Source: Blastochloris viridis
Lineage (GTDB): Bacteria > Pseudomonadota > Alphaproteobacteria > UBA2136 > UBA6156
Assembly: GCA_005768725.1 (NCBI GenBank)
Contig: VAFM01000002.1
Coordinates: 276,486-340,485 of the forward strand
Reading direction: 5' to 3'
Length of the DNA: 64,000 nucleotides
Positions within the stretch are counted from its first letter, which is position 1. Each line of letters begins with the position of its first letter. The notes beneath the pieces were generated by a model. The model saw only the letters and a list, made by a program, of their open reading frames with translations, made no database searches and was not told the DNA's origin. Of the stretch, positions 25,916-58,416 are shown one piece after another. The translations under genes were made by a program, and so were the position numbers.

Positions 25916-25928
25916 CCCTCTATATTGT

Positions 25929-26621: not shown

Positions 26622-26627
26622 CGTCGC

Positions 26628-26657
26628 AAAAACGGCAGCCCAGTGGCTGCCGTTTTT
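26628..26657 (+). terminator. Rho-independent terminator (identical to 25929-25959)
   Basis: aaaaacggcagcc-cagt-ggctgccgttttt. Confidence 0.7.
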
Positions 26658-26700
26658 GCGTTTCTTGCCAAAGGTACACAAATCCCCTAGGTTACGGCAC

Positions 26701-27345: not shown

Positions 27346-27358
27346 TCCCGCCTGAATG

Positions 27359-27385
27359 AAAAGCCCCGCACACGCGGGGCTTTTT
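27359..27385. terminator. Bidirectional terminator
   Basis: agccccgc-acac-gcggggct then T5. Confidence 0.65.
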
Positions 27386-27399
27386 AGTATCGGCTTCAG

Positions 27400-27924: not shown

Positions 27925-28013
27925 GAAGGAATCTTTCTTTTGGTTCTGTAATATTATAACCCTGAAGAGCAAGCAAACCTGACGCCTTCCAAATTCTTAA
28001 AAAATCAGCCCGA

Positions 28014-29021: not shown

Positions 29022-29046
29022 ACCTGTACTGGAAAGCCCGTCTCGC

Positions 29047-29697: not shown

Positions 29698-29711
29698 TCA
29701 CAGGCATAGCC

Positions 29712-30203: not shown

Positions 30204-30237
30204 CCATCGCGCTTCATGTGTGCTACAAACGCCGCCA

Positions 30238-30993
30238 ATGACCACTGCCTCTACCCCTCCCGCCAAAGGCCTGTATGTCGAAGGCCTGCAGAAACGCGTT
30301 GGCGCCCGCCAGATTCTGCGCAATGTCTCTCTCTCCGTCCAGCGCGGCCAGGTCGTGGCCCTGCTGGGGCCCAACGGCGCCGGTAAAACCAGCAGCTTCC
30401 AGGCCGTTATCGGCCTGACCCATGTCGATAGCGGCGTGATCACGCTGGACGGCGCCGATCTTACCCACCTGCCCATGTACCGCCGTGCCCGTCTGGGCCT
30501 CGGCTATTTGCCACAGGAGAGCAGCATTTTCCGCGGCCTGTCGGTAGAAAAGAACCTGCTCGCGGTGCTCGAAATGGTCTGCCGCACCCACGCCGAGCAA
30601 ACCACGCGCCTTGAAGAACTGCTCAACGAATTCGGCCTGACCAAGGTCCGCCACAGCCCGGCCCCTGCCCTTTCGGGTGGTGAACGCCGCCGTGTCGAGA
30701 TCGCACGCGCACTGGCCGCCAATCCGCAATTCATGATGCTCGACGAACCCTTTGCCGGGGTCGACCCTCTCGCCATCCGCGACGTGAAGAACTTGGTGCT
30801 GCACCTCAAAACGCGCGGCATGGGCGTCCTGATTACCGACCACAACGTCCGGGATACGTTAAGCCTTGTCGACCACGCCTACATCATGGCCGAAGGTCAG
30901 GTCCTAGCCTCCGGTACGCCGGCGCAGATCGTCGCCAACCCGGACGTTCGCCGCGTCTATCTGGGCGACGACTTCGAACTCGCCAAATCCTAA
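30238..30993 (+). CDS. lptB: LPS export ABC transporter ATP-binding protein LptB
   Basis: Walker A GPNGAGKTS, signature LSGGERRRVEIARAL, Walker B MLDEPFAGVD; start at MTTAS (track start 30220 also possible). Confidence 0.88.
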   Translation: MTTASTPPAKGLYVEGLQKRVGARQILRNVSLSVQRGQVVALLGPNGAGKTSSFQAVIGLTHVDSGVITLDGADLTHLPMYRRARLGLGYLPQESSIFRGLSVEKNLLAVLEMVCRTHAEQTTRLEELLNEFGLTKVRHSPAPALSGGERRRVEIARALAANPQFMMLDEPFAGVDPLAIRDVKNLVLHLKTRGMGVLITDHNVRDTLSLVDHAYIMAEGQVLASGTPAQIVANPDVRRVYLGDDFELAKS

Positions 30994-31157
30994 CCGATTG
31001 TCCGACAATCCGTCGCGCCAAAAGGCGCTTATCCGCCATTGTCTTTACGGAAAACGGAAACGACCGCCCTACCCCCTTGCCTTCTTATTCTGAAAGGTTC
31101 ATGTAAGAAACGTCTCCCGGAGACATCACATCATTTACATATGCGGAGGGGAAACTC

Positions 31158-31400
31158 ATGATGCGTTTAGTTGAAACGCCGCTCATCGGCGCCATTATCT
31201 GCCTGATTCCCGTGTACCTTGCGTTGACCTACCTTCACATACCCGCTGAAACATTCAAACCGTTCCTGATGCTCTGCTTCCTGGGATACATGTTCCTGGC
31301 TGCGGCCTGCGCCACCATTACCGCCTTCCACGGCACCGCTATATTTGTAGTCGCGGCACTTATGCTTCTGGGTCTGGCACATGTAACGCCAATCCTCTGA
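31158..31400 (+). CDS. Small membrane protein (80 aa, 2-3 TM), hypothetical
   Basis: Hydrophobic ORF with GGAGGGGAAA RBS; shares a bidirectional terminator with accD. Confidence 0.4.
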   Translation: MMRLVETPLIGAIICLIPVYLALTYLHIPAETFKPFLMLCFLGYMFLAAACATITAFHGTAIFVVAALMLLGLAHVTPIL

Positions 31401-31418
31401 ATACCTTACTTCGTCCGT

Positions 31419-31451
31419 AAAAAACGCCGCCCTTGTCCAGAGCGGCGTTTT
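31419..31451. terminator. Bidirectional terminator (serves accD on minus strand)
   Basis: A6-cgccgc..gcggcg-T4. Confidence 0.55.
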
Positions 31452-31469
31452 GTTATGTCGCGTAAACTC

Positions 31470-32333
31470 TTAAGCCTTGCGACCGGCCGTCATCATGCCG
31501 AGCAGCTTGGCCAACGTGGCACGCTGCTCGCTGCGCGGCGTCACCATATCCACCATCCCGTGCTCCAGCAGATATTCGGCACGCTGGAAGCCTTCCGGCA
31601 ACGTCTGGCGGATGGTCTGCTCGATCACCCGCGCCCCGGCAAACCCGATCAGAGCCCCGGGCTCCGCCATATGCACGTCACCGGTCATCGCGAAACTCGC
31701 ACTCACACCACCGGTGGTCGGGTCGGTCAGTAACACAAGATACGGCAAACCAGCCTCTTTCAGCATCGCAATTGCGGCCGTGCTGCGTGCCATCTGCATC
31801 AGGCTCAGGGTGCTTTCCTGCATGCGGGCACCACCACTCGCGGTGATAACCATCATCGGGATCTTCTTTTCCAGCGCATACTGGGCGGTCGCCACCAAAG
31901 CTTCCCCCACACCACGGCTCATAGAGCCTGCCATGAAGCCGAAGTCCAGCGCGCACACCGCTACCGGCTGGCTCTCAATATGGCCATGCAGCGCACGGAA
32001 AGCATCGCTGTGACCACTGGCGGCGCGGGCGTCTTTCAGACGCGCCTTGTAGGCTTTCTTGTCCTTGAAATTTAGGGGGTCGTCGGCTGGCACCGGCACG
32101 GCAATCTCCACCGGAGCCTTGCCTTCGTCCTGATCCAGCAGATACTCCAGACGCGCATCGATATCCCAGCGCAAATGGTGGTTACAATGCGTGCAGCAGA
32201 ACAGGTTCTGCGGCAGTTCGGCGGCGTAAATCAGTTGGCCACAGCCGGGGCACTTTTCCCACACATCGGCGGCAACCTCGCGCTTTTTGGTGGTTTTGAT
32301 GCTCGGACGGATCAGATCGGTAAGGAACGACAT
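31470..32333 (-). CDS. accD: Acetyl-CoA carboxylase carboxyltransferase subunit beta
   Basis: N-terminal Zn ribbon CPGCGQ..CTHCNHH, carboxyltransferase domain; start at MSFLTD Met. Confidence 0.9.
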   Translation of the reverse strand: MSFLTDLIRPSIKTTKKREVAADVWEKCPGCGQLIYAAELPQNLFCCTHCNHHLRWDIDARLEYLLDQDEGKAPVEIAVPVPADDPLNFKDKKAYKARLKDARAASGHSDAFRALHGHIESQPVAVCALDFGFMAGSMSRGVGEALVATAQYALEKKIPMMVITASGGARMQESTLSLMQMARSTAAIAMLKEAGLPYLVLLTDPTTGGVSASFAMTGDVHMAEPGALIGFAGARVIEQTIRQTLPEGFQRAEYLLEHGMVDMVTPRSEQRATLAKLLGMMTAGRKA

Positions 32334-32431
32334 GCCCCCTCTATACCGCAAAATCCCCTTGCACGCACGTTTTTTAGAGTATACAGACCACCCATCCACG
32401 AGGAACATACCGCACATACGGAGCAAGACGC

Positions 32432-32992
32432 ATGTCATCCGATGCCTACTACATTTCCAAAGCCTTTCACGTCATTACCGAACGTATAGCCCGCAAAGGC
32501 GCAACCGAAAAGCTGCCCAACTGGCACCGCGCCAAACCGATCCTTCTCGGCCAGACATGCCTCCCGCCTGATCGCGAGGATCTGGCCCAGGTGCTCTATA
32601 ACCTGTGGGAGAAAAGCCTGACCTACTACCAGCAGGCCGACCTGTTTCTGCCACGGCCGGATATCCTGCACCCAGGCTCGCACGACAATCCGGACATGCT
32701 CTGCATAACCGAGCATCAGGCCACAACCTACAAGCTGCGTATCCTGACCGAAAAACAACATCAACGGCCCGGCACATGGCAGGCGTTCGACCTCTACGCC
32801 AGAACCCCGCCAAAACAGCGGCCCAGGCTCAAACAGGGTTATGGCGAAGTTCCGGTCCGGCTTCTGCAAACCATGCCGAACGTGCATATGGCTCGTGCCA
32901 TCACGCTGGCGGTGGTCATCACCGCCAACCGTCACTTGCACGGCATCTACCCCCGCACGCTGATCGCTCTGGAGCGCGAAGCCGTCTGCTAA
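32432..32992 (+). CDS. Hypothetical protein (186 aa)
   Basis: Plus-strand frame chosen over the mirror minus ORF because of upstream GGAG and the strong plus-strand terminator at 33004-33043. Confidence 0.4.
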   Translation: MSSDAYYISKAFHVITERIARKGATEKLPNWHRAKPILLGQTCLPPDREDLAQVLYNLWEKSLTYYQQADLFLPRPDILHPGSHDNPDMLCITEHQATTYKLRILTEKQHQRPGTWQAFDLYARTPPKQRPRLKQGYGEVPVRLLQTMPNVHMARAITLAVVITANRHLHGIYPRTLIALEREAVC

Positions 32993-33003
32993 AACCACCT
33001 ATA

Positions 33004-33043
33004 GGAGCCTCTCTGACATCCTGCAGAGAGGCTCTCTTTTTTT
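33004..33043 (+). terminator. Rho-independent terminator
   Basis: gagcctctctg-acatcct-gcagagaggctc then T7. Confidence 0.7.
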
Positions 33044-33128
33044 ACATATTTACAACATGTAACACCCGTTATTTGGCCTATCTGGCACGTGTCAAATGCA
33101 CGCCTCCTGAATGATGCTATAAGAGGGT

Positions 33129-33656
33129 ATGAAAAACATTGTCATCACTCTCGCTTTCGTCCTGTCATTGTTCATAAGTCCGGTTAATTACGCCCAAGAG
33201 CGCACCGCAAGTGGCAATCTCATGCAGGAAGCCAACTGGAATTCACTGAAAAGCCTGGTCGATGCCGCCAGTAAAAAAGTCGACATGATGCAGGCCCAGA
33301 TCGACAAGATTGCAGAATGTGGTACCGCAGGTATGGTGTATGCTCCCGGCGAGACCAGCACCAGTATCAATGGCTGTAAAAAAACCAATGCAACACTCGC
33401 ACCATTTGTCGTGACCGCTGCCGGGAGTAACGAGCAAGCTATCGCGCAGTGCCCCTCCACTGCCGTCCGTATCGGCTGTGCCGGTGCCCGGGATGTCAAC
33501 CTCAGCGATGGCTGCCGCGAAGAATCCTGCGGCGTGATGGGAGCCATTCCTTACGGTGCCAACGGCTGCCTGATGCGCAATACTAACGACGGCGGCCGCA
33601 AAGCCAACGAACGCGCTCTTACTCCTGTTGCCTACGCTTTCTGCACCCCCAAATAA
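33129..33656 (+). CDS. Secreted Cys-rich protein, paralog C of the QERTAGG family
   Basis: Signal peptide ..VNYA|QE; conserved N-terminal module, divergent Cys-rich C-terminus; AAGAGGG RBS. Confidence 0.6.
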   Translation: MKNIVITLAFVLSLFISPVNYAQERTASGNLMQEANWNSLKSLVDAASKKVDMMQAQIDKIAECGTAGMVYAPGETSTSINGCKKTNATLAPFVVTAAGSNEQAIAQCPSTAVRIGCAGARDVNLSDGCREESCGVMGAIPYGANGCLMRNTNDGGRKANERALTPVAYAFCTPK

Positions 33657-33673
33657 GCCGAGCAAAATCACCT

Positions 33674-33701
33674 AAAACCCCTGTTTAAGCAGGGGTTTTT
33701 G
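33674..33701 (+). terminator. Rho-independent terminator
   Basis: aaaacccctg-tttaag-caggggttttt. Confidence 0.7.
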
Positions 33702-33763
33702 ATTGTCGATAGCGAATGAAAGATATACATACACATATCTACATCCGTACACGGAGTATTATC

Positions 33764-34312
33764 ATGACGTTTGCGCGCCTTATCGCAAGGCACGAACATC
33801 AAACCGCATCGCGCCCAAAACCACCCCAAACCCACGAATACTTTGGACTCGCCGTCCATCATGTTCTCTTCTATTTAAACTACAAGGGAGACCCCCTGCA
33901 ACTTTCACGAAAGGATATTCAGGCCGAACTGACGAATACGCTGAACATCAAGTACGAAAAACGTCTCGCAAATAGCCAGCTAACCCGGCGTATCACATTA
34001 ACGTGGCACGCCATTACGCAGTACGTTTATGAGAACTCAACCTACTTCACGACCGAGGTCGGGTTTCTGGGTAATCGCAAGATAGACTTGATACTGGAAC
34101 ACCCGGACGGCACGATCGAGCTGGTCGAAATTAAGACCTATAAAAAGAAAACCAAGACCTACTGCAAAAGGACTGCCACGAAACAACTGGCGGATGCCCG
34201 CAAGTTTATTTTGGAACATTATCCGGACACCAAGCTGAAATGGACAAAGATTCTGATCCAGAATGATCTCAGTAAACCCTTCAAGTGCCAGATTCTACGC
34301 GCCCCCTCGTGA
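33764..34312 (+). CDS. PD-(D/E)xK nuclease-fold protein (YraN/Hjc-like core GNRKIDLILEHPDGTIELVEIKT), low-GC ORFan
   Basis: E..D..ExK catalytic-motif arrangement; local GC about 47% versus about 60% background; flanked by terminators (start could be 33716). Confidence 0.5.
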   Translation: MTFARLIARHEHQTASRPKPPQTHEYFGLAVHHVLFYLNYKGDPLQLSRKDIQAELTNTLNIKYEKRLANSQLTRRITLTWHAITQYVYENSTYFTTEVGFLGNRKIDLILEHPDGTIELVEIKTYKKKTKTYCKRTATKQLADARKFILEHYPDTKLKWTKILIQNDLSKPFKCQILRAPS

Positions 34313-34314
34313 AA

Positions 34315-34343
34315 GAGCCTCCCCGCAAAGGAGGCTCTTTTTT
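34315..34343 (+). terminator. Rho-independent terminator
   Basis: agagcctcc-ccgcaaa-ggaggctct then T6. Confidence 0.7.
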
Positions 34344-34409
34344 CGCAGATACCTTGTCTTAACGCCCCCTTTTCGCTAGATTCCACCCCGTAAAAGGAAA
34401 GGAATCCCT

Positions 34410-34934
34410 ATGTCCCTCAAAGACCTGCCCGCTGGCAAAGAACCCCCGCACGATATCTACGTGGTGGTGGAAAACCCCAAGCACACCCCGCACATCAAGT
34501 ACGAGGTCGATAAGGATACCGGCTTGCTGTTCGTCGACCGCTTTGCGCCGATGCCGATGGTCTTCCCGGCCCACTACGGCTTCATCAATAACACGCTGGG
34601 TGGCGATGGCGACCCGGTCGACGCGTTTGTCTACACCGACATCGCCGTGGTTCCGGGTGCGGTTGTCCGCTGCCGTCCGGTAGGCGTGCTGATGACCACC
34701 GACGAGAGCGGCGAAGACGCCAAACTGGTCTGCGTGCCGCACAAGAAGCTCGACCCGCGCTTTGAAAACATCAAGGACTACACCGACCTGCCGCAGATGT
34801 TCCGCGACCAGCTCGAGCAGTTCTACAGCCACTATAAGAACCTCGAACCCGGCAAGTGGGTCAAGATCGCCGGCTGGGGCGATGTCAAGGCCGCCGAAGC
34901 CATTGTGCTCAAGGGCATCACCGACGCCAAGTAA
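34410..34934 (+). CDS. ppa: Inorganic pyrophosphatase (family I)
   Basis: 174 aa, PPase signature DGDPVDAFV, conserved throughout. Confidence 0.92.
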   Translation: MSLKDLPAGKEPPHDIYVVVENPKHTPHIKYEVDKDTGLLFVDRFAPMPMVFPAHYGFINNTLGGDGDPVDAFVYTDIAVVPGAVVRCRPVGVLMTTDESGEDAKLVCVPHKKLDPRFENIKDYTDLPQMFRDQLEQFYSHYKNLEPGKWVKIAGWGDVKAAEAIVLKGITDAK

Positions 34935-34951
34935 CAGGCACATACCTGCAC

Positions 34952-34975
34952 AAAAGGGCCCATAGGGCCCTTTTT
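34952..34975 (+). terminator. Rho-independent terminator after ppa
   Basis: aaaagggccc-ata-gggccctttt. Confidence 0.7.
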
Positions 34976-35020
34976 GCTATCCCTAAATCATTGTCCAGTC
35001 TATCAGGTTTGCTAAAGATA

Positions 35021-35416
35021 TTAAGCGTGAGTTGCTTTGGCTTTGATCCACATCAGATGCTCCGTCAGATTAGTTTTCACCTGTTCCAGCGTCTGAATTC
35101 GCTGATGCAAAGACTCGGCAAATTGCATACACTCCTCAAGACCACGCAGACATTCCGCCTCTTCAGTAGAGTTACCATTTGCCCTAGCCTCATCTAACCA
35201 TTGAGACCACTGACGAACACGTTCCTCCGTCTCAACAAGCATGGGTCGTAATGCAAGAAGTTGATTCTCAGCCTCAGCTAAAACCTCTCTCCCCTCGGCA
35301 GCGACGAATTGCGCCTTCAGAATAAGGCGCTCATATTCTTCATCGTCGGTTTCGATATCGTAGAAGTTTTCTAACATGATCCATTGAGTCTGAACCAGAC
35401 TGAGCTGACAAGACAT
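35021..35416 (-). CDS. Acidic coiled-coil hypothetical protein (131 aa), low-GC ORFan
   Basis: GGAGTGAAGAA RBS before ATG; local GC about 46%; no recognisable domain. Confidence 0.45.
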   Translation of the reverse strand: MSCQLSLVQTQWIMLENFYDIETDDEEYERLILKAQFVAAEGREVLAEAENQLLALRPMLVETEERVRQWSQWLDEARANGNSTEEAECLRGLEECMQFAESLHQRIQTLEQVKTNLTEHLMWIKAKATHA

Positions 35417-35428
35417 TTCTTCACTCCA

Positions 35429-35453
35429 ATAAAAAGCCCCGTAACGGGGCTTT
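35429..35453 (-). terminator. Rho-independent terminator after rsmH
   Basis: On minus strand: agccccg-tta-cggggct followed by TTTTT. Confidence 0.6.
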
Positions 35454-35461
35454 CTTCACTC

Positions 35462-36457
35462 TTATCCAACCCGTTCCAGCGTCCGCAAAATCGCACTCCG
35501 CGCACGCGGGTTTACGTCAATCTCCGCATCACTCGGCACGATCTTCTTCCCCATCTTGAACTTGGCCGGGGTCTTGACGCGACCGATCTCATCCAGCTCA
35601 TCCAGACACAACCGGCGGAACGCCGCCTTCACCGCACGCTCTTCCAGCGGCTGGAACGAAATCACCGCCAGCACGCCACCCTTTTTCAAACACCACGCCG
35701 CATCCGGCAGCGCGCGCTCCAGCACGGCCAGTTCATCATTCACGGCCACACGCAGGGCCTGAAAAATACGCGCCGCCGGGTGGGCACGCTTCAGGCCTAA
35801 CTTAGGCGGATACACCTGCTCCACCGCCGCCAATAAATCTTTGGTGGTCTCAAACGGCTGAGCCTTGCGCTGCTTGACGATCAGACGCGCCAGCACACGG
35901 CTCTTCGGCTCTTCACCGTACACATAAAAGATATCGGCCAATTCTTCCTCGCGGGAGGTGTTCAGCACGTCCGCAGCGGTCTTTTTCATGCTGCTGTTGA
36001 GGCGCATATCCAGCGGCCCCTCAAAATGATAACTCAAGCCGCGCTGAGGGTCGTCCAGTTGGTCGCTACTGAACCCAAGGTCGAGCAGAATCCCATCGGC
36101 CAGCGGGGGTAACGCGCCCACTTTGCGCTTGCCGCAGGTCACGCTGTTTTGCAGTACCGGTCCGGCCAATACTTCGGGAATGGTATCGTAGGCGGCACGT
36201 ACCAGGTGCACACGGTCGCCAAAGGTTTCCACCAGCGGCGCACAGCGCACTAATGCACGGCTGTCCCAGTCCAGTCCCACCACTTCGGCCCCGCGCTCCA
36301 GCAGGCCACGGGTGTGCCCACCACCGCCCAAAGTACCATCCACCAGCAGTTTTCCGGCGGCAGGTTCAAGGGCATCCATCACTTCATGGAACAGCACAGG
36401 GACGTGCACCGTCTCGGCCGTACCGCGCGTTTCTAGCAAAGTGGAATCCCCATTCAT
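35462..36457 (-). CDS. rsmH: 16S rRNA (cytosine1402-N4)-methyltransferase RsmH (MraW)
   Basis: SAM-binding TLGGGGH motif, 331 aa, downstream of mraZ. Confidence 0.9.
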   Translation of the reverse strand: MNGDSTLLETRGTAETVHVPVLFHEVMDALEPAAGKLLVDGTLGGGGHTRGLLERGAEVVGLDWDSRALVRCAPLVETFGDRVHLVRAAYDTIPEVLAGPVLQNSVTCGKRKVGALPPLADGILLDLGFSSDQLDDPQRGLSYHFEGPLDMRLNSSMKKTAADVLNTSREEELADIFYVYGEEPKSRVLARLIVKQRKAQPFETTKDLLAAVEQVYPPKLGLKRAHPAARIFQALRVAVNDELAVLERALPDAAWCLKKGGVLAVISFQPLEERAVKAAFRRLCLDELDEIGRVKTPAKFKMGKKIVPSDAEIDVNPRARSAILRTLERVG

Positions 36458-36633
36458 GGCCGCCTTCTACCCCAAATCGCAGATTAACCCAAGCGAAAAA
36501 GCGGCGCGAAGCCGCATTATTTCTGAATTTTTTTCGTATTTTAGTAAACTACCAACCTAAAAAAACGAGCCTCCCCCGAAGCTCGTTTTCACAAAGATAA
36601 TTTTCCAGTCGAAGGAAAGTTCCCTCACCTTTT

Positions 36634-37110
36634 TTATTTCCAGAGTCCGTCCATAACGGCGAAGTCTTCCGCCGTTAATTGGCCGTCATCCTGCATCTGG
36701 GCTTCATAACGCTGCGGGTTCCAGATGGTGAAATATTCCCCCTGACCGGCGAACATGATCTCTTCGCCAAGGCCGGCTTTTTCCGCCAGGTCCGCTGGCA
36801 GCATCACGCGGCCGGCATCATCGAAGTTTAGTGGCCGAGCAGCTGCAAGAATGGCCCGCGCCAGTCGTTGGCGTACCGGGCTGAGTGCCGGAAGTTGCTG
36901 AATTTTTTCAGCCAGTTTGAGAAAGTCATCGTAAGCCCAGCCATATAAGTATCCTCCATTGCTTCCTGCATCCGGCGCCGCGTACACCACAACTTGCTGT
37001 CGGGTATGCGCGGCCATTTCATGACGGAACGACGCCGGCACCGAAACACGGCCCTTCTTGTCCACGTTATTCACGTAAGAGGACAAGAAGACGGTCATCG
37101 GGGCAGTCAT
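36634..37110 (-). CDS. mraZ: Transcriptional regulator MraZ
   Basis: Two MraZ repeats (DKKGRVSVP.., DDAGRVMLP..); start at MTAPMTVF (alternative 37098); track ORF extends to 37254. Confidence 0.85.
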   Translation of the reverse strand: MTAPMTVFLSSYVNNVDKKGRVSVPASFRHEMAAHTRQQVVVYAAPDAGSNGGYLYGWAYDDFLKLAEKIQQLPALSPVRQRLARAILAAARPLNFDDAGRVMLPADLAEKAGLGEEIMFAGQGEYFTIWNPQRYEAQMQDDGQLTAEDFAVMDGLWK

Positions 37111-37263
37111 CCTTCCGTTGTGGCGCCGCATCGTGCGTTGCCGGTTAATTTCGTGGCCGGGGTCGCCCAGTACTCGCGTACTCTCCGGCCTTGGTCCCTC
37201 GTAGGCGGTCCCCCATGAACCGCCCGCTCCCTTGGAACCTTTTGGATCACCCATGGTTGTATT

Positions 37264-45806: not shown

Positions 45807-46097
45807 ATGCCAAACCCACCCACACCTCCCTACCAGCCCAAAGCGGCTGCGCTGAAATACGATAAGGAAACCTCCGCCGCCCCGAAGCTGACCGCCAAGG
45901 GCCGTGGCCTGGTGGCCGAAAAGATCATCGCGCTGGCCGAGTCCGAAGGCATTCCCCTCTACCGCGACCCGGACCTGATCGAGATCCTCGACAAGACCGA
46001 ACTCGACACCGAGATCCCGCTGGAAGTCTACGCCATTGTGGCCGAGATCTTTGCCTTCGTGTATAAGGTCAACCAGCAGAAGAAAATCAAACTCTAG
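45807..46097 (+). CDS. Standalone FlhB C-terminal-domain homolog (96 aa, cytoplasmic, no TM region)
   Basis: Alignable to FlhB C-terminal fragment (..AAPKLTAKGRGLVAEKIIALAESEGIPLYRDPDL..EIPLEVYAIVAEIFAFVYK). Confidence 0.7.
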   Translation: MPNPPTPPYQPKAAALKYDKETSAAPKLTAKGRGLVAEKIIALAESEGIPLYRDPDLIEILDKTELDTEIPLEVYAIVAEIFAFVYKVNQQKKIKL

Positions 46098-46109: not shown

Positions 46110-46370
46110 ATGGCGACGCCCCTCCTCCCGCTTCTCGAGATCCTCCGCAACCCGGAAAGCCCGGGCTTTGCCGAAGCCGCACAACGCCTCGGCACGGTAC
46201 TGGAAACCTTCGACCCGACCACACTGTCCGAAGCCGACCGCCTCGCGGTACAGGCCAGCCTGACCGAGGCTCTAGCCAATATCAGCGCCGCCCAAAGCCT
46301 AACCGCCCAGGAGCTCGGCATTACGCAAAAACGTGCCCACGCCCTGCAATCCTACAACCGTCTCAAGTAA
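46110..46370 (+). CDS. Hypothetical protein in flagellar operon (86 aa)
   Basis: ORF packed between FlhB-C homolog and fliO; no known motif. Confidence 0.4.
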   Translation: MATPLLPLLEILRNPESPGFAEAAQRLGTVLETFDPTTLSEADRLAVQASLTEALANISAAQSLTAQELGITQKRAHALQSYNRLK

Positions 46371-47456: not shown

Positions 47457-47490
47457 AAAAAAAACACCGGCCCCAGGGCCGGTTCCTTTT
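47457..47490 (+). terminator. Rho-independent terminator after fliP
   Basis: A8-caccggcc-ccag-ggccggt-tcctttt. Confidence 0.65.
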
Positions 47491-47693: not shown

Positions 47694-50600
47694 CTAAAGG
47701 GCGGGCGGCGGTAGCAACTCCATGTACTTCATTTTATCGTTGTACTCTTGCTGCTCTTCACGCTGCTGCGCAATCTCCGCTCTCCGCACCTGCACCCTGT
47801 CCGTCAACCGGTTCAGATCACTCAGCGCCACAGTCACCGGCGCTAAAGGCCCAGTACTGGCCAGGCTGGCACTGATGCCGGTACTCGCCGCCACAGCACC
47901 TAACCCATCACCCAATACCGGCAGACGGTTCATCACATCGGCATAGCGCACGGTCAAAGCATCCAGCTTGGTGGCATCGCGCAGTTCGCCGTACACATAA
48001 CCCAGCCGGAAGGCCGCCACCTGAGCGCCACGGTCGCCTACCATTGCCGCCGGAGTGACGCCCTCTAAACGGGCTTCCAGCAACGGTACAATCGTTTTCC
48101 AGTCCTTGGCCATCCACGCCGCTTCGATGCGCAGATCACGTATCGCAGCGTCGTCGTTGGGCATTTTGGCGAGGGCCTTTTGCACGGCTTGCGGGCGCTT
48201 CAGGCGCAGCAGCAGGTCGGCTTCCACCAGTTTCCATTCCCGCGCCAGCACCTGCGTATTCGCGGCATGCTGCCATTTATCGATGATCTTAATGCCTTCG
48301 GCCGCCTTGCCCATGTTGCCGTAGGCTTCGGCCAGCATGAGAGAGAGCCGCGCCTGCGTCGGCATATCCAGCGGACGGAACTTGAGCTGCGATTCGAGAA
48401 TCGGCACGGCTCGTGCCCACAGGTTGGCATCGATCAACAGACGCGCCACATGTTCATGGATCAGATCACCGCGCGCATCATGTGGCACCAGTTCACTGAA
48501 GTCATAATACAGCCCCACGTATTCCAGCGGATCATACGTATGCGGGTTTTCGGGGTCGAACACATGCACGAACGCATCCCCCATCTTTTCGGTCACCTGA
48601 CGTAAGTTTGGCGAACGCGGGAACGCTTTCACCAGCGTCTGCCAGTACTGCAGCGCCATGCGCGAGTCACCGGTCTTGGCGTACATGTCGCCCAGCATGT
48701 ACAGCACGTCCTGTTCCAGATCATCCCCGCGCCAGTCGAACCACAGGTCACGCAGGTAGCTGATCACCTGCTCATCACTCAGATCACGGCGCTGGTACAG
48801 CGCCCTCACAAACTCAAACTTGGCACGGTAGGCGGTCTTCGGGTCGCGCATATCCTCGGCGGCAGCGGCCAAATACTCCAATCCCTCCGACTCCTCTGGC
48901 GTCCCCAAACGCACCAGCCCGCGCAGGCGGTTCAGCGCTGCCGGTACATCCTTGGGGTCATGGTAGCCCTTAATAAGTTCTTCCAGAACCGCCTTACCAG
49001 CCTTGCGGTTACCACTCATCACCAGCGCGCTGGCCTGGGCTTCCTGCGCCATCTCACGCATATAGGCCGGGTACTTCGGCAGAATCCCACGCTCCTCCGG
49101 CCACAGTTTCAGCGCAGTGGCATAATCCCCTAAGCGGCTGGCAGCCACCGCACGCCACAGCTTGCCATCAGCGCCTAGTGGACCACCCTGATCGAACAGT
49201 TTCGCATCCGGCACTTCATCCCGCGCCAGCATCGCCACACCCATCAGCAAACGCGCAGCAGGGCTGGCGGGCAGTTTATCTTCGCGCACCGGCAACTCCC
49301 GCAATACCGCAAGCGCCTCTTCCGGACGGTCCCAGTTGAGGTACACCGCCGCCATATTCATCTGTTCGGCACGTTCCTGCGCACTGTCGGCCGGGCGCTC
49401 GGCAATGGCCCGCAACGCCGCCAGAGAATCACTCACGTACGACTTCCCGCGCACCGGGAACAATCCCTCCACCATCCGTGCCGGAACATCCGGAATCGGC
49501 TCCACCGCCGCCATATCAGGAATCTTTACATCCAGCCGCCCTTCGCGGGCTTTTTCTTCATCAATTTTACGCTGCTTTTCAGCTTCCAGAGAGGCTTTCA
49601 CCGGCTCCAGTGTCACCTGATTCCAGGTACCCGAAACCTTGCTCGGCGTCACATCAGAACTGGCGGTCACCGTCTCGTCACCATGCGCCTCCGCCCCCAC
49701 GTCCGGGGTTTCCGCAGGCGGTTCGGCCGAATGCGCGGCTAACACCTCTCCGGCAGCCTCAACCCCATGCGTATCAGCGGCGTGGGTGTCCGAAACCGTC
49801 GTCACGTCCCTTTTTTTTTCCTGATCCACCAGCGGGGTGCCCAGCCCGCTCATGCCCTTGGGCAGGGTCAGGCTGACTAGCGTGCCCGGCACATACACCT
49901 TGCCCAGCACGCGCGGCAGCAGTTCGCTTTCCACTTCTTCCAAAGCCATGGGCCGCATCGAAGGCGCCGGGTGCACACTCACCTTGGCTAAACCGCTCTG
50001 CGCCACGGCCGCTTCCACAGCGGTGGCCGAAGGTTTGCTCGGCAGGCTCGGCGGTGCCTTTACAGCCACCTCGTCCACCTTGGTCCCGCGCGTCATCACA
50101 TCGCCTACATTTACAGCCTGCAACGGCGCCTTGGCCGCAGGCGTTTCACCTGTCGTTGCCGCCGCCGTGGTCGTCTTGGCGGGCACTGGTTCATCACCCG
50201 CCGCAGGGTTTACTGCAGCGGCAGAAACACGCCCCGCAGCCCCCATGCGCACACCACCCACCACACTGCCCAGCATACTCACCGGGCGCTCCGCCAGCGC
50301 GACCTGCCAATCTTTTCCAAACGCGCGCAGGCTTTGCGGACGCAGCGTTTCGTTCCCCGCCAGCCAGCTGTCATTCAGCATTACGGCGCTCTCGCTTTTC
50401 AGCGCGGTGCCCGGGCGCACCAGCCAGTTAGTCCCGTCCTGCACCACTTTCCAGCTGCTTTCCACACCGCGTACCAGCACCGCCTGCAAACCGTTGTCGG
50501 TCGTCCGCTGTACATTCACGGTGGCAGGCAAGGTACCGATTTTTACTTCACCACCCGCGGGCACCACTACAATCAAACCATCCACACTCGGGCGCCATGC

Positions 50601-50729
50601 CGCCATGCGTGCCGCTTCCGCACGTATCAGTAATTTTCCGTCCACGGCATCAATCTGCAGGCCCGGTGCCGCCCATACAGCCGTTGGCACCACCAGTACC
50701 GCCGCTACGTGCATCGCAAATGTCCGCAT
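47694..50729 (-). CDS. Large periplasmic TPR-repeat protein (1011 aa) co-transcribed with motB-like genes and cheA
   Basis: Signal peptide, Ala/Pro/Thr-rich linker, C-terminal half rich in TPR-like helical repeats; start overlaps upstream gene stop (TGATG). Confidence 0.65.
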   Translation of the reverse strand: MRTFAMHVAAVLVVPTAVWAAPGLQIDAVDGKLLIRAEAARMAAWRPSVDGLIVVVPAGGEVKIGTLPATVNVQRTTDNGLQAVLVRGVESSWKVVQDGTNWLVRPGTALKSESAVMLNDSWLAGNETLRPQSLRAFGKDWQVALAERPVSMLGSVVGGVRMGAAGRVSAAAVNPAAGDEPVPAKTTTAAATTGETPAAKAPLQAVNVGDVMTRGTKVDEVAVKAPPSLPSKPSATAVEAAVAQSGLAKVSVHPAPSMRPMALEEVESELLPRVLGKVYVPGTLVSLTLPKGMSGLGTPLVDQEKKRDVTTVSDTHAADTHGVEAAGEVLAAHSAEPPAETPDVGAEAHGDETVTASSDVTPSKVSGTWNQVTLEPVKASLEAEKQRKIDEEKAREGRLDVKIPDMAAVEPIPDVPARMVEGLFPVRGKSYVSDSLAALRAIAERPADSAQERAEQMNMAAVYLNWDRPEEALAVLRELPVREDKLPASPAARLLMGVAMLARDEVPDAKLFDQGGPLGADGKLWRAVAASRLGDYATALKLWPEERGILPKYPAYMREMAQEAQASALVMSGNRKAGKAVLEELIKGYHDPKDVPAALNRLRGLVRLGTPEESEGLEYLAAAAEDMRDPKTAYRAKFEFVRALYQRRDLSDEQVISYLRDLWFDWRGDDLEQDVLYMLGDMYAKTGDSRMALQYWQTLVKAFPRSPNLRQVTEKMGDAFVHVFDPENPHTYDPLEYVGLYYDFSELVPHDARGDLIHEHVARLLIDANLWARAVPILESQLKFRPLDMPTQARLSLMLAEAYGNMGKAAEGIKIIDKWQHAANTQVLAREWKLVEADLLLRLKRPQAVQKALAKMPNDDAAIRDLRIEAAWMAKDWKTIVPLLEARLEGVTPAAMVGDRGAQVAAFRLGYVYGELRDATKLDALTVRYADVMNRLPVLGDGLGAVAASTGISASLASTGPLAPVTVALSDLNRLTDRVQVRRAEIAQQREEQQEYNDKMKYMELLPPPAL

Positions 50730-51424
50730 CAGTTCGCCCTCACAACCAGATGCACAGCCGGCTCACCTTCCACCACTTCGGCAAAGGCATTGTCCACGCC
50801 GGTCGCGTTCAAGATCAGCGCCAGTTTCTGGGCCTGTTGGGCAGCCGCGGCCAAACCGGCCTGCGGTGCACTCACACGCACACCCACCGGATTTTTCCAG
50901 CCGCGCAAGGCGGCTCCCAAGGCTTCCCATTCAGCTTTGGCAGCCTGCGGGTCCTGCTTAGTTGCGGCAATGCTGTAAACCATTTCACTGCCACGCACGC
51001 CCTGCGTTTCTTCGCCACGCAAACCACTCCAACCCGGGCTTTTTTCCAGATGCTGCTGCAGCAGAACATTCAGATATCCCAAGCCCGAACGCACGGCCGA
51101 TGTCCGAATTTCGGCATTATTCACGCCTTCCGCCACACTCTCCACCACCACTTCGCGCGAGGCAAATTTCGATTTGAAGCTGCCGGATATCGCCTCCCAC
51201 TTCTCGCGCTCCAGCGTCTGCATCGAGAACATCAGCACAAAGAACGCCACCATCAGACTGGTAAGGTCAATGAACGAGATCAGCCATGCCGTCCGCGAAG
51301 GCTGATAACGCGCGGTCTTTAATTCCATCCAGAGTGGCGCCGGCGCCGCCACAGCAACCGGAGCTTTCACCGGAGCGGCCACAGGAGCTTTTTCGTGTTC
51401 AGTTTGCGGAGCCACCGTCGTCAT
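50729..51424 (-). CDS. MotB/TolR-like TM-domain protein without OmpA domain (231 aa), paralog 2
   Basis: TM segment WLISFIDLTSLMVAFFVLMF matches the MotB plug/TM motif including the conserved Asp; no peptidoglycan-binding motif. Confidence 0.5.
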   Translation of the reverse strand: MTTVAPQTEHEKAPVAAPVKAPVAVAAPAPLWMELKTARYQPSRTAWLISFIDLTSLMVAFFVLMFSMQTLEREKWEAISGSFKSKFASREVVVESVAEGVNNAEIRTSAVRSGLGYLNVLLQQHLEKSPGWSGLRGEETQGVRGSEMVYSIAATKQDPQAAKAEWEALGAALRGWKNPVGVRVSAPQAGLAAAAQQAQKLALILNATGVDNAFAEVVEGEPAVHLVVRAN

Positions 51425-52086
51425 CGAACACCTCCGGCATCCACGCCACGGGTATCCCCATTCACGTCATCGGTCAGGTTCTGTATAGCGCTCCCCATAG
51501 CGGAACCGGTCAACGCACCGGGGCGGACCTGCACCTGCAGCACACGCTCTTCACTGTCCTGCCACGCCACCGCGCTCCCGGTCATGCGGCTCAGGGTCGC
51601 CATGTAACCGGCAAACAGGCCTTTCGCGTCGTAAGGCGCTTGCAGGCCCCATGCCAGGGTACTGTCGGCACCAGCCGCCGCGCGCAGCTTGGCAACAAAC
51701 TCGGGCCGGCGCAGCGTGCCATTCTCCTGAAAGACTTCATTCAGCGGCACTTCCACGCGCAGCTCATTGGCGTTGGAGCCCTGCGGCAACACGCGTAACT
51801 GCATGCGGTTCATCACGGTCCCGCGCAGACGGGTGATCACATCTTCGCGCCACGCAGTGTGCGGAGCCGTCGGTACGGCCTGACCTTCAGGCGCTTCGGT
51901 GCGGGTCTCGGCCATCGCCTCGTTGCTGGCCATCAATTCCGCGTCGGGGTGCGGTTTACCCGGCTGGGCCATGCTGTTCAACAGCATGAAAAACACCAGC
52001 AGGATGAGATTGAGAGACAGCCACATGATCAACGCCGAATCGCCGTTGGAAACGGCTTTCAGCGAGCGGGGAACAAGCGCGGTCAC
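51421..52086 (-). CDS. MotB/TolR-like TM-domain protein (221 aa), paralog 1 (Asn in place of the TM Asp)
   Basis: TM segment MWLSLNLILLVFFMLL; weak MotB-periplasmic-like stretch ELRVEVPLNEVFQENGTL; GTG start (ATG alternative at 52026). Confidence 0.45.
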   Translation of the reverse strand: MTALVPRSLKAVSNGDSALIMWLSLNLILLVFFMLLNSMAQPGKPHPDAELMASNEAMAETRTEAPEGQAVPTAPHTAWREDVITRLRGTVMNRMQLRVLPQGSNANELRVEVPLNEVFQENGTLRRPEFVAKLRAAAGADSTLAWGLQAPYDAKGLFAGYMATLSRMTGSAVAWQDSEERVLQVQVRPGALTGSAMGSAIQNLTDDVNGDTRGVDAGGVR

Positions 52087-52229
52087 GCGGCGGATTCTCT
52101 TTCTTGGTCACGCAAGTTTAGCACAAAGCCGCCGGGACACCAGTCCAACGGCGGCTTTGGGGCAGGCTTTCCTGCGGCATCTGCGTAAGGCTGTGGCGGA
52201 AATATGAATCGCCAGCGCCTATTCCGGCT

Positions 52230-54365
52230 TTAGTGACCGACCGACTTGCTCATCTGCTTCATCATGTAGGGCACATCCAGAATCATGTGCACCTTACCGT
52301 CACCGGTAATGGTGGCACCCGAAACCGCCTTGTTGTACTCAAACATGCCGGTCACGGGCTTCACAACCACTTCTTCCTGGCCCAGCAGCGCATCCACAAC
52401 CAAGCCCATGGCCGAGCTGCCTTCACGCACCACCACCACAAAACCCTTGATCTTGTCATTCGGGGCCGCACCCGGTTTGTCCACATCTTCCAGACGCACC
52501 AGCGCACCGTCCACTTGCGGGGTGAGCGCATGGGTCAGTTTGGAGAGGTAATACAGCGGCAGCGGCTCGCCCCGCAACTCAATCACATTCTGGTCATTCA
52601 CACGGTGAATACCTTCGGTGGTGAACTTGATGACCTCGGCAATATCCCCGATCGGGATGGCAAATCCTTCATTACGGGCCCCCACGATCAACGCGTTCAC
52701 AATAGCCAGCGTCAGCGGCATGTAAATGCTGAAGCACGTTCCCATCCCCAGCTCGCTGGTGATGTCCACGCTGCCCTGCAGGTTAAGAATCTTGGTATTC
52801 ACCACATCCATCCCCACACCACGGCCGCTCACGTCGGTAATCTGCTCGGCGGTGGAGAATCCCGGCGCCATGATGAGACGGATCGCTTCGGCATCACTCA
52901 GCGCCGCCGCCGCCACGTCACTGATGATCCCCTTCTTGACGGCGACCTTGCGGATCTTTTCGGGGTCGATCCCCTTACCATCTTCCTGAACTTGGATCAC
53001 CACGTTGTTACCCTCGTAAAACGCGCGCACAACCAAAGTCCCTTCGGGGTGCTTGCCAACAGCTTCACGCTCGGCAGGCAGTTCAATCCCATGGTCAAGC
53101 GCGTTACGGATCATGTGCACCATCGGGTCGGCCAGATCCTCAACAAGGCTCTTATCGACTTCGGTCATTTCCCCTTCGACGATCAGGTTGACCTCTTTCT
53201 TGAGTTGCGTCTTCAGCTCACGCACCTGTCTCGGAATCTTGTCGAATACCTTCTTGATCGGCTGCATGCGGGTACTCAGCACGCTCATCTGCAGGTCCTG
53301 CGTCACACGGCTCAACTGCTCCATGGTAGAGTAGATCATCGTCGCATTGTCCAGCTCTTCAATCACCTTACGGGTCTCAGGGCCGTTCAGTTGGCGCAGC
53401 ATGGTGTTACGGGCCAGCACAAGCTCACCCACCAGGTTCATCACCTTGTCCAGACGCGAGGTCTCCACACGGATGGTATCGTTACCAGCTTCCTCATTAC
53501 GGCGCGGCGCCTGACGACGATCTTCACCCTTGCGCTGCTCTTCCGGCACAGCCTTGGCCACAGCCGGGCCAACCGCCGCAGCAGGCGCCGGGGCAGCCGC
53601 CACCGGGGCCGAGAATTTCAGATCCTCCTCACACTCTTTATCGCGGCTCGGGTCAAGGGTCGGGTCATTCAGTACCGAGGCCAGCAGTTCGGCATTTACA
53701 CTCACACCACTCGTAACAGGCGTCGCCACAGGGGCGGCAGCAACAACCGGAGCCGCCTCCTCAGGTTCCTTGTCGCGGCTGGGGTCCAGCGTGGGGTCGC
53801 TCAAAACTTCATCCAGCAGGTTGAACGGTTTGTCCTCAACAACCTCCGCGTCCGCTGCCATATCCGCGTCCTCAGCGGCATCGTCCATATCCTCGTCCGC
53901 AGCTTCCATTACCACTGGTGCGGCCGGAATTTCCACAGCGGTCTGGCCGGTCGCCAGCGCATCCAAAGCCTCACGCAGGGCGGTGGTATCAAAATCAGAA
54001 TCATCTTCGCGGCGCTTCTGGATCAGCACCAGTTGCTTCAGCATATCGGTGGTCTGCAACAGGGCGTCCATCACCGGCTTGGTCACTTTCACACGTCCCT
54101 GACGCACTTCATCCAGCAGGTTTTCACCGGAGTGCGCCAGCTTGGCGATTTTTTCCAACCCCAAAAAGCCGGCGCCACCCTTCAGGGTGTGCAGCATACG
54201 GAAGATACGGTCGACCGTTTCCTGGTCGGTACCGCTGCTGGCACCATCGGCCAGCGCTTCTAGTTTGATGAGATCCTGTTCGAGCGTATCGAGGTTTTCA
54301 TCGGCCTCGGTGAAGAATTCCTCAAGGATTTCATTCAGCTCATCGCCCATATCGTCCATGGTCAT
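52230..54365 (-). CDS. cheA: Chemotaxis histidine kinase CheA
   Basis: HPt MLHTLKGGAGFLG, dimerisation, HATPase_c and C-terminal CheW-like domains; acidic linker with internal 44-aa tandem duplication. Confidence 0.92.
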   Translation of the reverse strand: MTMDDMGDELNEILEEFFTEADENLDTLEQDLIKLEALADGASSGTDQETVDRIFRMLHTLKGGAGFLGLEKIAKLAHSGENLLDEVRQGRVKVTKPVMDALLQTTDMLKQLVLIQKRREDDSDFDTTALREALDALATGQTAVEIPAAPVVMEAADEDMDDAAEDADMAADAEVVEDKPFNLLDEVLSDPTLDPSRDKEPEEAAPVVAAAPVATPVTSGVSVNAELLASVLNDPTLDPSRDKECEEDLKFSAPVAAAPAPAAAVGPAVAKAVPEEQRKGEDRRQAPRRNEEAGNDTIRVETSRLDKVMNLVGELVLARNTMLRQLNGPETRKVIEELDNATMIYSTMEQLSRVTQDLQMSVLSTRMQPIKKVFDKIPRQVRELKTQLKKEVNLIVEGEMTEVDKSLVEDLADPMVHMIRNALDHGIELPAEREAVGKHPEGTLVVRAFYEGNNVVIQVQEDGKGIDPEKIRKVAVKKGIISDVAAAALSDAEAIRLIMAPGFSTAEQITDVSGRGVGMDVVNTKILNLQGSVDITSELGMGTCFSIYMPLTLAIVNALIVGARNEGFAIPIGDIAEVIKFTTEGIHRVNDQNVIELRGEPLPLYYLSKLTHALTPQVDGALVRLEDVDKPGAAPNDKIKGFVVVVREGSSAMGLVVDALLGQEEVVVKPVTGMFEYNKAVSGATITGDGKVHMILDVPYMMKQMSKSVGH
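53628..53819 (-). repeat. Intragenic tandem duplication (132-nt period) within the cheA P1-P2 linker
   Basis: LLDEVLSDPTLDPSRDKEPEE ... LLASVLNDPTLDPSRDKECEE. Confidence 0.6.
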
Positions 54366-57229: not shown

Positions 57230-57817
57230 CTACGGAGCCGTCGCCGATACCGTCGGCGGCGGCGTCCGCGCCGCCATCATTTCACTCAGCACCCGTGCCT
57301 TGGCCGGATCGATCGCTTCCATGATCTTCCCGCTCTTCTTGGCAGGCATCCGCGTGATCACATCGAGCACGATCAGGTTGTCCAGACGGTTGAGCACACC
57401 AGCCGCCACCAGCGGCTTCATGTTGCCGTAAATCATCGCCAACTGGTCAAGCTCCTTGTCGTCCTTACCGCTCACATTGCCCAGTAATTTTTCCAGCTCA
57501 CCCTGAAGCGTTTTCAATTCCGCCACGCGCGCATTCAGGCGTTGCTCCATCAGGTCCACCAGCTTTTCACGCAGTTCCAGCGCCTGCGCACGGCGTTCCA
57601 TTTCAATCCGTTGCTGGTCCAGGTCCAGCAATACGTCTACTTCGGTCTCGCTGTACACGCGGCCTTGGCGCAGTTGCGGGTCTTCCACGGGCAGAGTCGA
57701 CGAAACCTCACCACCACCCTCACCTTCACCACCACCGCCATGGCCTCCGCCACCACCAGCAGCCCAACCCGGCACCGCCAGCGCTACCAGCATCAAGGCC
57801 ACCAGCCAGGCGCGCAT
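57230..57817 (-). CDS. Flagellar motility protein MotE-like (MgtE-N-like periplasmic domain)
   Basis: Signal peptide, poly-Gly stretch, coiled coil, C-terminal LAMIYGNMKPLVAAGVLNRLD..VLDVITRM motif. Confidence 0.5.
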   Translation of the reverse strand: MRAWLVALMLVALAVPGWAAGGGGGHGGGGEGEGGGEVSSTLPVEDPQLRQGRVYSETEVDVLLDLDQQRIEMERRAQALELREKLVDLMEQRLNARVAELKTLQGELEKLLGNVSGKDDKELDQLAMIYGNMKPLVAAGVLNRLDNLIVLDVITRMPAKKSGKIMEAIDPAKARVLSEMMAARTPPPTVSATAP

Positions 57818-58416
57818 TACGCACCACCCTTCAGGCTTTGCTGAAGGTCCAGCTCGGCCTGTGTCACCGGCCCACTGCGCTTACGCTTCGGAGATTTCGT
57901 CACAGGCGCATCAGCAACGCCGGTGGTCTGCAAATTGGCCAGCAGTTCTTCCAGTGGGTCACCGTCACGCCCCATACCAGCCTGCAACGCCTGCGGCAAA
58001 GGCTTGGCCGCCGTGCCGTTGGCACTGGCCACACGCTCCACAACCGCCTGAGTTTCCGGCGCTAAACGTACACTCGGCAAATCCTCTTCGTCCGTTACCA
58101 CGGTACGGCGGCTCGTCGCCTGCTCCAGCTTGTCGCCCATGCTCTCGGCACGTTGTAATAAAAACTGCAATTCCACCTTGCTCTGGCCCGCCGCGTCAAT
58201 CAAACGGTTCAGCTCGGGGCCAGAGCCACTCAGTTCCTGCTTGATATCAGCCAATCCCTTACGCGCACTCAAAATCGCTTCGGTCAGTTTCTCGGCCAGC
58301 AGCGGGGCCTCGCGCGCCGCCACACGCCATTCCTTGAGCTGGAAGTGCAGAACCAGCAGCAAACCGGCCACCAGGGCCAGCAGTAACACGGTCAGAATAC
58401 TGATGTACAACGCCAT
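57817..58416 (-). CDS. Membrane-anchored hypothetical protein in flagellar operon (199 aa)
   Basis: N-terminal TM helix, coiled-coil; start/stop overlap with neighbours (operon). Confidence 0.45.
   Translation of the reverse strand: MALYISILTVLLLALVAGLLLVLHFQLKEWRVAAREAPLLAEKLTEAILSARKGLADIKQELSGSGPELNRLIDAAGQSKVELQFLLQRAESMGDKLEQATSRRTVVTDEEDLPSVRLAPETQAVVERVASANGTAAKPLPQALQAGMGRDGDPLEELLANLQTTGVADAPVTKSPKRKRSGPVTQAELDLQQSLKGGA

Follow-up and report, generated by a model that had tools for sequence, protein, structure and literature searches.

A translationally coupled gene triad downstream of cheA is predicted to encode a divergent MotB, an aspartate-less MotB paralog and a MotK/PflA-like periplasmic protein

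Periplasmic proteins with tetratricopeptide repeats (TPRs) act on the flagellar stator in several bacteria. In Campylobacter jejuni and Helicobacter pylori, the periplasmic TPR proteins PflA and PflB bridge the FlgY E-ring to the stators and stabilise them, and the label PflA-like has been applied to single-copy flagellar TPR proteins of other phyla (10.1101/2025.02.19.638559; PMC12054838). In Cereibacter, MotK combines an AMIN-like N-terminal domain with a TPR-like region, is encoded in the operon fliL-pflI-motE-motA-motK, binds both MotE and the periplasmic region of MotB2, and is indispensable for rotation (PMC10954123). Loss of the secreted TPR protein FssB (CC_2058) of Caulobacter paralyses the assembled flagellum, as does deletion of motB, and FssA of the same organism, a secreted protein without known domains, also acts on the stator, its loss being suppressed by mutations in the MotB plug (PMC7885107). 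Feng et al. and Zhu et al. have proposed that FlgY/MotE constitutes the E-ring and that PflA, MotK, MotC and CC_2058 are spokes reaching the stators (10.1101/2025.02.19.638559, PMC13023049); CC_2058 and CC_2059, products of adjacent genes, were named as homologs of PflA and FlgY, respectively (10.1101/2025.02.19.638559). Here we analyse a 64-kb stretch of a contig deposited as Blastochloris viridis (hereafter the window; all positions count from its first letter), in which three overlapping genes, ORF1-ORF2-ORF3 (the triad), probably supply B-type flagellar stator parts together with their periplasmic docking protein.

All three genes lie on the minus strand, with cheA (52230-54365, minus) directly 5' of them and cheB, a CheZ-family gene and cheY further upstream on the same strand. 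ORF1 (51421-52086, 221 aa, GTG start) encodes a predicted N-in single-pass membrane protein, an aspartate-less MotB paralog that we call MotB'; ORF2 (50729-51424, 231 aa) encodes a divergent MotB-type stator B subunit, and ORF3 (47694-50729, 1011 aa) a predicted secreted MotK/FssB/PflA-like TPR protein. Coding statistics are strong for each of them, and the GTG start of ORF1 is supported by the conserved N-terminus of its 13 close homologs. The junctions read gttcgATGAcg (ORF1/ORF2) and aacTGATGcgg (ORF2/ORF3), confirming the coordinates and the ATGA and TGATG overlaps downstream of cheA that had been reported in a first-pass annotation of this DNA. Relatives are few, only 13-15 per protein being detectable among 5.8 billion clustered proteins, and when one genome from each of 185,579 species was scanned, members of the ORF2 family turned up in four metagenome-assembled genomes (MAGs). 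Eight independent loci keep the order ORF1-ORF2-ORF3; each comes from an uncultured, Alphaproteobacteria-like MAG, and the order is intact wherever the sequence suffices (L001/L012, L003/L014, L005, L013, L015, L028 and L029), with stop/start overlaps of 1-17 nt retained at both junctions in six of seven relatives. The gene immediately upstream is cheA in seven loci and fliP lies downstream in five, while the genes downstream of the triad in L029 are not flagellar and the only visible side in L005 adjoins mraZ and the dcw cluster. Because the order stays intact while the flanks vary among loci, we regard the triad as a conserved unit. Flagellar or chemotaxis genes are present at every triad locus with enough flanking DNA, except L005, where dcw genes alone are visible; the earlier view of a module wired into a chemotaxis operon is thus upheld in the form of a conserved coupled unit inside flagellar and chemotaxis gene clusters.

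By its sequence and predicted fold, ORF2 is built like a complete MotB, except that the canonical residues for peptidoglycan binding are absent. It contains WLISFIDLTSLMVAFFVLMF, in which Asp53 (codon GAC at 51266-51268) is invariant in 16 of 16 homologs, in agreement with the first-pass claim that the proton-channel aspartate is retained in this protein. Residues 44-87 (51164-51295, minus) match the Pfam family MotB_plug (PF13677) at 6.5e-13 and comprise the transmembrane (TM) helix directly followed by an amphipathic plug; in the AlphaFold2 (AF2) model, residues 42-87 form one continuous helix. The N-terminus is also matched by the NCBIfam models MotB, MotD and MotS, B chains of solved stator complexes in the Protein Data Bank (PDB; 9luc, 8bri, 8zyv and 6ysf) are matched by the family profile at 1e-9 to 1e-4, and ORF2 matches the canonical MotB of the syntenic locus L025 with a phmmer E of 2e-12. 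Residues T45, A46, W47, L48, D53, L54, T55, F62, V63, L64, F66, S67, W76, G81, S82, F83 and F87 are invariant within the family, as is the signature TAWL..F.DLT...FFVL.FS around Asp53. The periplasmic domain (residues 92-231; 50732-51151, minus) has a MotB-C/OmpA-like fold. In canonical OmpA-like domains, the diaminopimelate of peptidoglycan is bound by residues such as the Asp of GHTD and the Arg of LSxxRA. Where aligned canonical MotBs have GHTD....NWELS.ARA, ORF2 has the shorter SAPQ-AGLAAAAQQAQKLA; the loop with the Asp is deleted, Gln or Lys stands in place of the Arg in 14 of the 16 family members, and the NRRV motif at the end is missing. Pfam yields no OmpA match for ORF2 at E<=1. The contention that neither small protein has a recognisable peptidoglycan-binding domain consequently holds for the Pfam search and for the motif but not for the fold, which is strong in ORF2 and weak in ORF1, the wall-binding motif being lost in both. 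The first-pass annotation had conceded that these might be ordinary MotBs with overlooked OmpA domains; an OmpA-like fold had indeed been overlooked, but ORF2 is divergent rather than ordinary. ORF2 would presumably be the main MotB of this flagellum.

The relationship of ORF1 to MotB emerges at the level of its wider family. ORF1 by itself has no match in Pfam or NCBIfam and no OmpA domain by Pfam, and because direct alignment of the ORF1 and ORF2 families by hhalign covers the TM helix alone, with a probability of 15%, homology to MotB was established through more distant relatives. When the profile of the ORF1 family was used for an exhaustive HMMER search, 88 proteins were recovered at E<1e-3, and 73 of them were aligned as the wider family A5. 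MotB_plug (PF13677) is matched by 38 of these 73 members and OmpA by 4, and the A5 profile matches full-length PomB/MotB structures at ~2e-11, with the TM helix and the periplasmic domain both aligned, as well as ORF2 at 1.3e-7. The MotB-type TM segment that had been ascribed to both small proteins is therefore evident directly in ORF2 and only at the family level in ORF1. The TM helix of ORF1 (residues 15-39, ...LIMWLSLNLILLVFFMLLNSMA; 51970-52044, minus), also a helix over residues 15-39 in the AF2 model, is the best-conserved portion of the protein, with the MotB' pattern S-L-x-L...FFxLLN(S/T) maintained, F33 present in 73/73 relatives and N37 in 67/73. Three alignments (hhalign, MAFFT, and HMMER against PomB, with its Asp24) place Ser24 (52015-52017) at the position of the MotB aspartate, which corrects the earlier assignment of an asparagine to this site: Asn26 (52009-52011) lies two residues beyond it, and both Asn26 and Asn37 are conserved in the helix. 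Across the 73 relatives, the column at the Asp position holds Ser 48 times, Ala 14 times, Gly 5 times, Cys 4 times and Asp once. Residues 41-74 are modelled by AF2 as a disordered linker, and residues ~105-215 (51442-51774, minus) form a periplasmic alpha/beta domain with a degenerate OmpA-like fold that lacks the peptidoglycan-binding loop; a Foldseek search of the AF2 model against the PDB gave no significant match. On these grounds ORF1 is classified as a degenerate MotB paralog in which the aspartate has been lost and is now a serine. A cluster look-up of ten wider ORF1 relatives found metagenomic singletons only, and tblastn of one relative against plasmids returned nothing.

The aspartate-less MotB paralog is not confined to the clade of the window. 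A metagenome scan with the MotB' helix motif recovered loci from unrelated contigs, five of which (L019, L022, L023, L024 and L027) have the order motA-motB'-motB, the motB' product being without the Asp, the motB product with it, and both bearing a canonical OmpA domain. On a 178-kb contig (L023; 5194-7592) the genes run motA-motB'-motB-fliL-fliM, and the TM helices read FTSLSMILLAFFILLNSMA in MotB', which has a canonical OmpA domain, and WMVTFSDLLTLMLTFFVL in MotB. The alphaproteobacterial-type locus L025/L021 mirrors the window in the order motE-like-cheY-cheZ-motB'-motB and encodes a canonical MotB next to a half-degenerate MotB'. A motB' gene thus stands directly upstream of an Asp-bearing motB in the window, in the eight triad loci, in L025 and in L019, L022, L023, L024 and L027, and the clade of the window looks like the end of a series, both of its periplasmic domains being without the peptidoglycan-binding motif. 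The nearest published precedent that we found for tandem MotBs is motA-motB1-motB2 of Aquifex aeolicus, whose two MotBs differ mainly in their periplasmic regions and are 97% identical in their TM regions (PMC4525482). Both Aquifex proteins presumably keep the Asp, whereas the first copy here has Ser in its place, within a conserved helix of a different type, LNL...FFxLLN(S/T). A literature search of incomplete coverage turned up no account of MotB paralogs without the aspartate, which is weak negative evidence. What appears to be new is the MotB' family and its combination with ORF2 and the TPR protein, the TPR class and the ORF2 kind being already known.

ORF3 starts with a putative signal peptide (residues 1-20, MRTFAMHVAAVLVVPTAVWA/AP; 50670-50729, minus), read from the sequence (...AVWA/APGL); this signal-peptide-like N-terminus with its VWA/A site, recognised by inspection, is conserved in the homologs. 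It is followed by a conserved beta-rich block (residues ~21-170; 50220-50669, minus), a candidate AMIN-like domain, and P0038, a distant homolog of ORF3, matches the AMIN-like family PF24837 at 4e-8. The linkers are variable and rich in Ala, Pro and Thr. Best conserved is the TPR-like helical region (residues ~431-960; 47850-49439, minus), with one canonical TPR at ~674-706; the Pfam matches (TPR_6, TPR_14, TPR_19) are all sub-threshold, and the family profile matches PDB entries of consensus TPR proteins at E 3.7e-26 (profile positions 668-702). The large secreted TPR protein of the first-pass annotation is therefore supported by a Sec-type N-terminus seen by inspection and by the structural profile match, with Pfam remaining below threshold. 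At the C-terminus (47694-47730, minus; EYNDKMKYMELLPPPAL) the tail YNDKM.YMELLPPP is conserved, the last residues having a mean column conservation of 0.76 across the triad clade, about equal to that of the TPR core, which suggests that the tail could be a docking motif.

ORF3 has 14 homologs. The distant ones, with ~26% identity, all reside in alphaproteobacterial flagellar clusters, for example after fliL-fliM-DUF6468-MotE(MgtE_N) in L007, near fliL-fliM in L008 and adjoining fliP-fliO in L009. The close-family hidden Markov model (HMM), over positions ~414-912, aligns with the TPR proteins of L007, L009, L008 and L017 and with a plasmid protein of Erythrobacter aureus at E 1e-19 to 1e-25; because ~450-500 residues are collinear, this homology is more than a shared repeat. 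The wider HMM matches a TPR protein of Azospirillum brasilense at 8e-36, the gene of which is immediately upstream of motA-motB (L016). The ORF3 profile gave no PDB sequence match to PflA. Taken together, homology and gene context would place ORF3 in the MotK/FssB (CC_2058)/PflA class, a kind of protein that is already characterised. A candidate partner is encoded in the window at 57230-57817 (minus): this 195-aa MotE/FlgY/FlbB-like protein matches the MgtE_N protein encoded before the TPR gene in L007 with a phmmer E of 7e-22, has no Pfam match, and hits NCBIfam collar_FlbB at 1.2e-5, below the cut-off. In this motor it probably serves as the MotE/FlgY protein of the E-ring and, as such, is the predicted partner of ORF3. 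Between fliM and the motE-like gene lies a DUF6468 gene (57817-58416, minus; PF20072 at 2.9e-8), which may belong to the PflI family, judging from its position as in the Cereibacter fla2 operon.

Among the described systems, the MotK-MotE-MotB2 set of Cereibacter sphaeroides Fla2 resembles the triad in that, within an alphaproteobacterial flagellar cluster, motE and stator genes accompany the gene of a protein, secreted or predicted to be so, that combines a beta domain at the N-terminus with disordered linkers rich in Pro and Ala and a TPR-like helical region. The likeness is one of architecture and gene context, MotK being 652 aa long against the 1011 aa of ORF3; moreover, the TPR gene of the window is coupled to two motB-type genes, whereas motK follows motA, and in the window cheY-cheZ-cheB-cheA separate the motE-like gene from the triad. 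With FssB the shared feature is a TPR gene beside a MotE/FlgY homolog, as in the order fliL-fliM-DUF6468-MotE-TPR of L007, although no motB' has been reported next to fssB in Caulobacter. We liken L007 to the Caulobacter locus on the basis of what we take to be the gene order CC_2058-CC_2062, together with the published adjacency of CC_2058 and CC_2059. PflA has a beta-sandwich/AMIN-type N-domain and periplasmic TPRs, whereas the N-domain of ORF3 is only a candidate AMIN-like one, there is no detectable sequence similarity of ORF3 to PflA/PflB, and neither a PflB-like partner with TM segment plus TPRs nor cage or disk genes were seen here. The architectural resemblance to PflA pointed out at the outset has nonetheless proved apt, since published work places MotK, MotC and CC_2058/FssB in the PflA class (10.1101/2025.02.19.638559, PMC13023049, PMC10954123, PMC7885107). 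Of the description as an uncharacterised stator-associated module, the association with the stator stands, and "uncharacterised" applies to ORF1 only and not to the TPR class, for which there is genetics on FssB of Caulobacter and MotK of Cereibacter.

To the observed homologies, folds, motif losses, synteny and conserved coupling, the mechanism that we favour adds physical contacts, an ORF1-ORF2 heterodimer and protein-based anchoring, all of which we infer. ORF2 would sit inside a MotA pentamer encoded elsewhere and conduct ions through Asp53 under the gating of its plug. ORF1, made in step with ORF2, would most likely join the same stator unit, either as the second chain of the B dimer or as an accessory subunit that binds it tightly; that it touches MotA or MotB is argued from its coupling to ORF2, the location of its relatives between motA and motB elsewhere and its conserved MotB-like helix. 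ORF3, once exported, probably forms spokes that start at the MotE/FlgY ring, which encircles the MS-ring, and reach the periplasmic domains of both B-type proteins; like MotK and FssB, it would recruit and activate stators. Because ORF1 and ORF2 are without the canonical peptidoglycan-binding residues, anchoring would probably proceed via ORF3 and not directly to the cell wall. A bolder generalisation, which we consider doubtful, is that stator units in the clade of the window and in the motA-motB'-motB bacteria contain a heteromeric MotB/MotB' pair instead of a homodimer, held in the window's clade by the MotK/PflA-like spoke instead of peptidoglycan; such a pair would leave a single ion-binding carboxylate per 5:2 unit.

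In current models of the 5:2 stator, the two B chains are taken to be identical, to use their aspartates alternately and to be anchored to peptidoglycan, and a conserved Asp-less MotB paralog challenges the assumption of identity. MotB' would be either a B chain of a second kind or a new accessory subunit built into the stator, and in both cases it would bear on the coupling of ion flow to rotation and on stator gating. Loss of the wall-binding motif in both proteins, combined with coupling of the MotK/FssB/PflA type, would make the locus a natural case of purely protein-mediated stator anchoring and would add a further alphaproteobacterial lineage to those with the E-ring and spokes that have lately been proposed. 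Should ORF1 be only a minor accessory, the locus would represent a divergent member of the known stator-scaffold systems.

Several points weigh against this interpretation. The link of ORF3 to MotK (Q3IY86), CC_2058 (Q9A6M9) and PflA is drawn through synteny and homology to their positional equivalents, and the AMIN assignment of its N-domain found no Pfam match, no PDB profile match and an hhalign probability of 2.6% to the AMIN-like segments of distant homologs. We know of no experimental precedent for a B dimer with a single Asp. No MotA homolog was detected in the window or at any triad locus (Pfam on selected ORFs, phmmer), and a canonical motAB pair may exist elsewhere in the genome. Such a pair could drive rotation by itself, with ORF1 and ORF2 acting as non-conducting adaptors and ORF3 as a static periplasmic ring or collar, in the manner of MotY/MotX or FliL/MotF. 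This would fit with the lack of a motA beside the triad, the loss of peptidoglycan-binding residues from both OmpA-like domains and of the Asp from ORF1, and the coverage of our data, which is 64 kb of the genome. However, motA and motB are often unlinked in Alphaproteobacteria, as in Caulobacter, and ORF2 has retained Asp53, which is invariant, along with the plug and the entire TM signature of MotB, features that serve no purpose but a gated flow of ions within MotA; in L025, moreover, a canonical MotB occupies the syntenic position. MotY of Vibrio and Pseudomonas, the T-ring protein, is a stator-associated periplasmic protein with an OmpA-like domain that aids stator assembly and exemplifies protein-based anchoring, but it differs from ORF1 in being secreted, in lacking a TM helix of the MotB type and in not being a MotB paralog encoded in tandem with motB. 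We judge the accessory scaffold to be rather unlikely.

A further point against placing ORF1 in the stator is that its hydrophobic segment ends in NSMA/QPG, an AxA-like site at which a signal peptide might be cleaved. ORF1 would then be a soluble periplasmic factor with a cleaved Sec signal that activates the stator, comparable to FssA of Caulobacter, which is known only as a secreted, domain-less protein acting on the stator (PMC7885107), and the disordered linker at residues 41-74 would suit such a protein. Yet the hydrophobic stretch of ~22-25 residues is long for a signal peptide and, with F33 fully and N37 nearly invariant, varies less than any other part of the protein, a degree of conservation that signal peptides seldom show; the stretch can be aligned with the TM helix of MotB/PomB, and relatives of ORF1 sit between motA and motB, all of which renders a soluble ORF1 improbable. 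Finally, the triad could serve a non-flagellar 5:2 motor, as an accessory of a Tol/Ton-like, Zorya-like or cell-division-linked envelope system that lies near flagellar genes by chance. This we hold to be very improbable, given that no ExbB/TolQ/ZorA-type gene is adjacent, that cheA and fliP flank so many of the loci, and that homologs of ORF3 occur in flagellar clusters only. An identity of the small proteins as Zorya ZorB or ExbD/TolR was rejected as well, the PADLOC ZorB model reaching E 0.03 only, with no ExbD match in Pfam and no MotA/ExbB-family gene nearby.

Downstream of the triad, fliP, fliO and a stand-alone FlhB-C-like gene are convergent with it, followed by fliK, flgD and flgE. 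Between ORF3 and fliP lies a bidirectional intrinsic terminator (47466-47483), consisting of the 7-bp GC stem ACCGGCC-CCAG-GGCCGGT and then GTTTTTTTTA on the minus strand. The stand-alone 96-aa protein (45807-46097, +) corresponds to the C-terminal-type domain of FlhB only (Bac_export_2 in relatives), and its gene is divergent from fliK. An 86-aa ORF without a family match (46110-46370, +) separates the FlhB-C-like gene from fliO and is conserved there in all relatives; its counterpart in L003 is a tandem duplicate (L003:14680-15265).

Upstream of the triad, the 143-nt spacer between cheA and ORF1 (52087-52229, minus) starts with TAAA-N15-GGCGATTC, which loosely resembles a sigma-28 promoter, the consensus of which is TAAA-N15-GCCGATAA; a sigma-70 scan found nothing in this spacer. 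A weak terminator-like hairpin right after cheA (52211-52228) and two sigma-70-like matches within ORFs were discarded, neither kind of signal being in excess of the shuffled expectation. The linker of CheA (residues ~185-245) contains two copies of a ~20-aa motif, LLDEVLSDPTLDPSRDKEPEE and LLASVLNDPTLDPSRDKECEE, separated by an Ala/Pro/Val-rich stretch.

The species labels "Blastochloris viridis" (DI628) and, for a relative, "Pseudomonas fluorescens" (DI585 / S2_006) look mis-assigned, the nearest genomes being MAGs of Alphaproteobacteria/Proteobacteria. In the window the dcw cluster is split (18992-37254), mraZ-rsmH (35462-37254) being ~12 kb from an ftsL-like gene, ftsI and murE (18992-23009), with ppa, accD, lptC-lptA-lptB, a KpsF/GutQ-type SIS-CBS gene and an RNase D-like exonuclease gene between the two parts; in L005 the triad is immediately followed by an unbroken dcw cluster.

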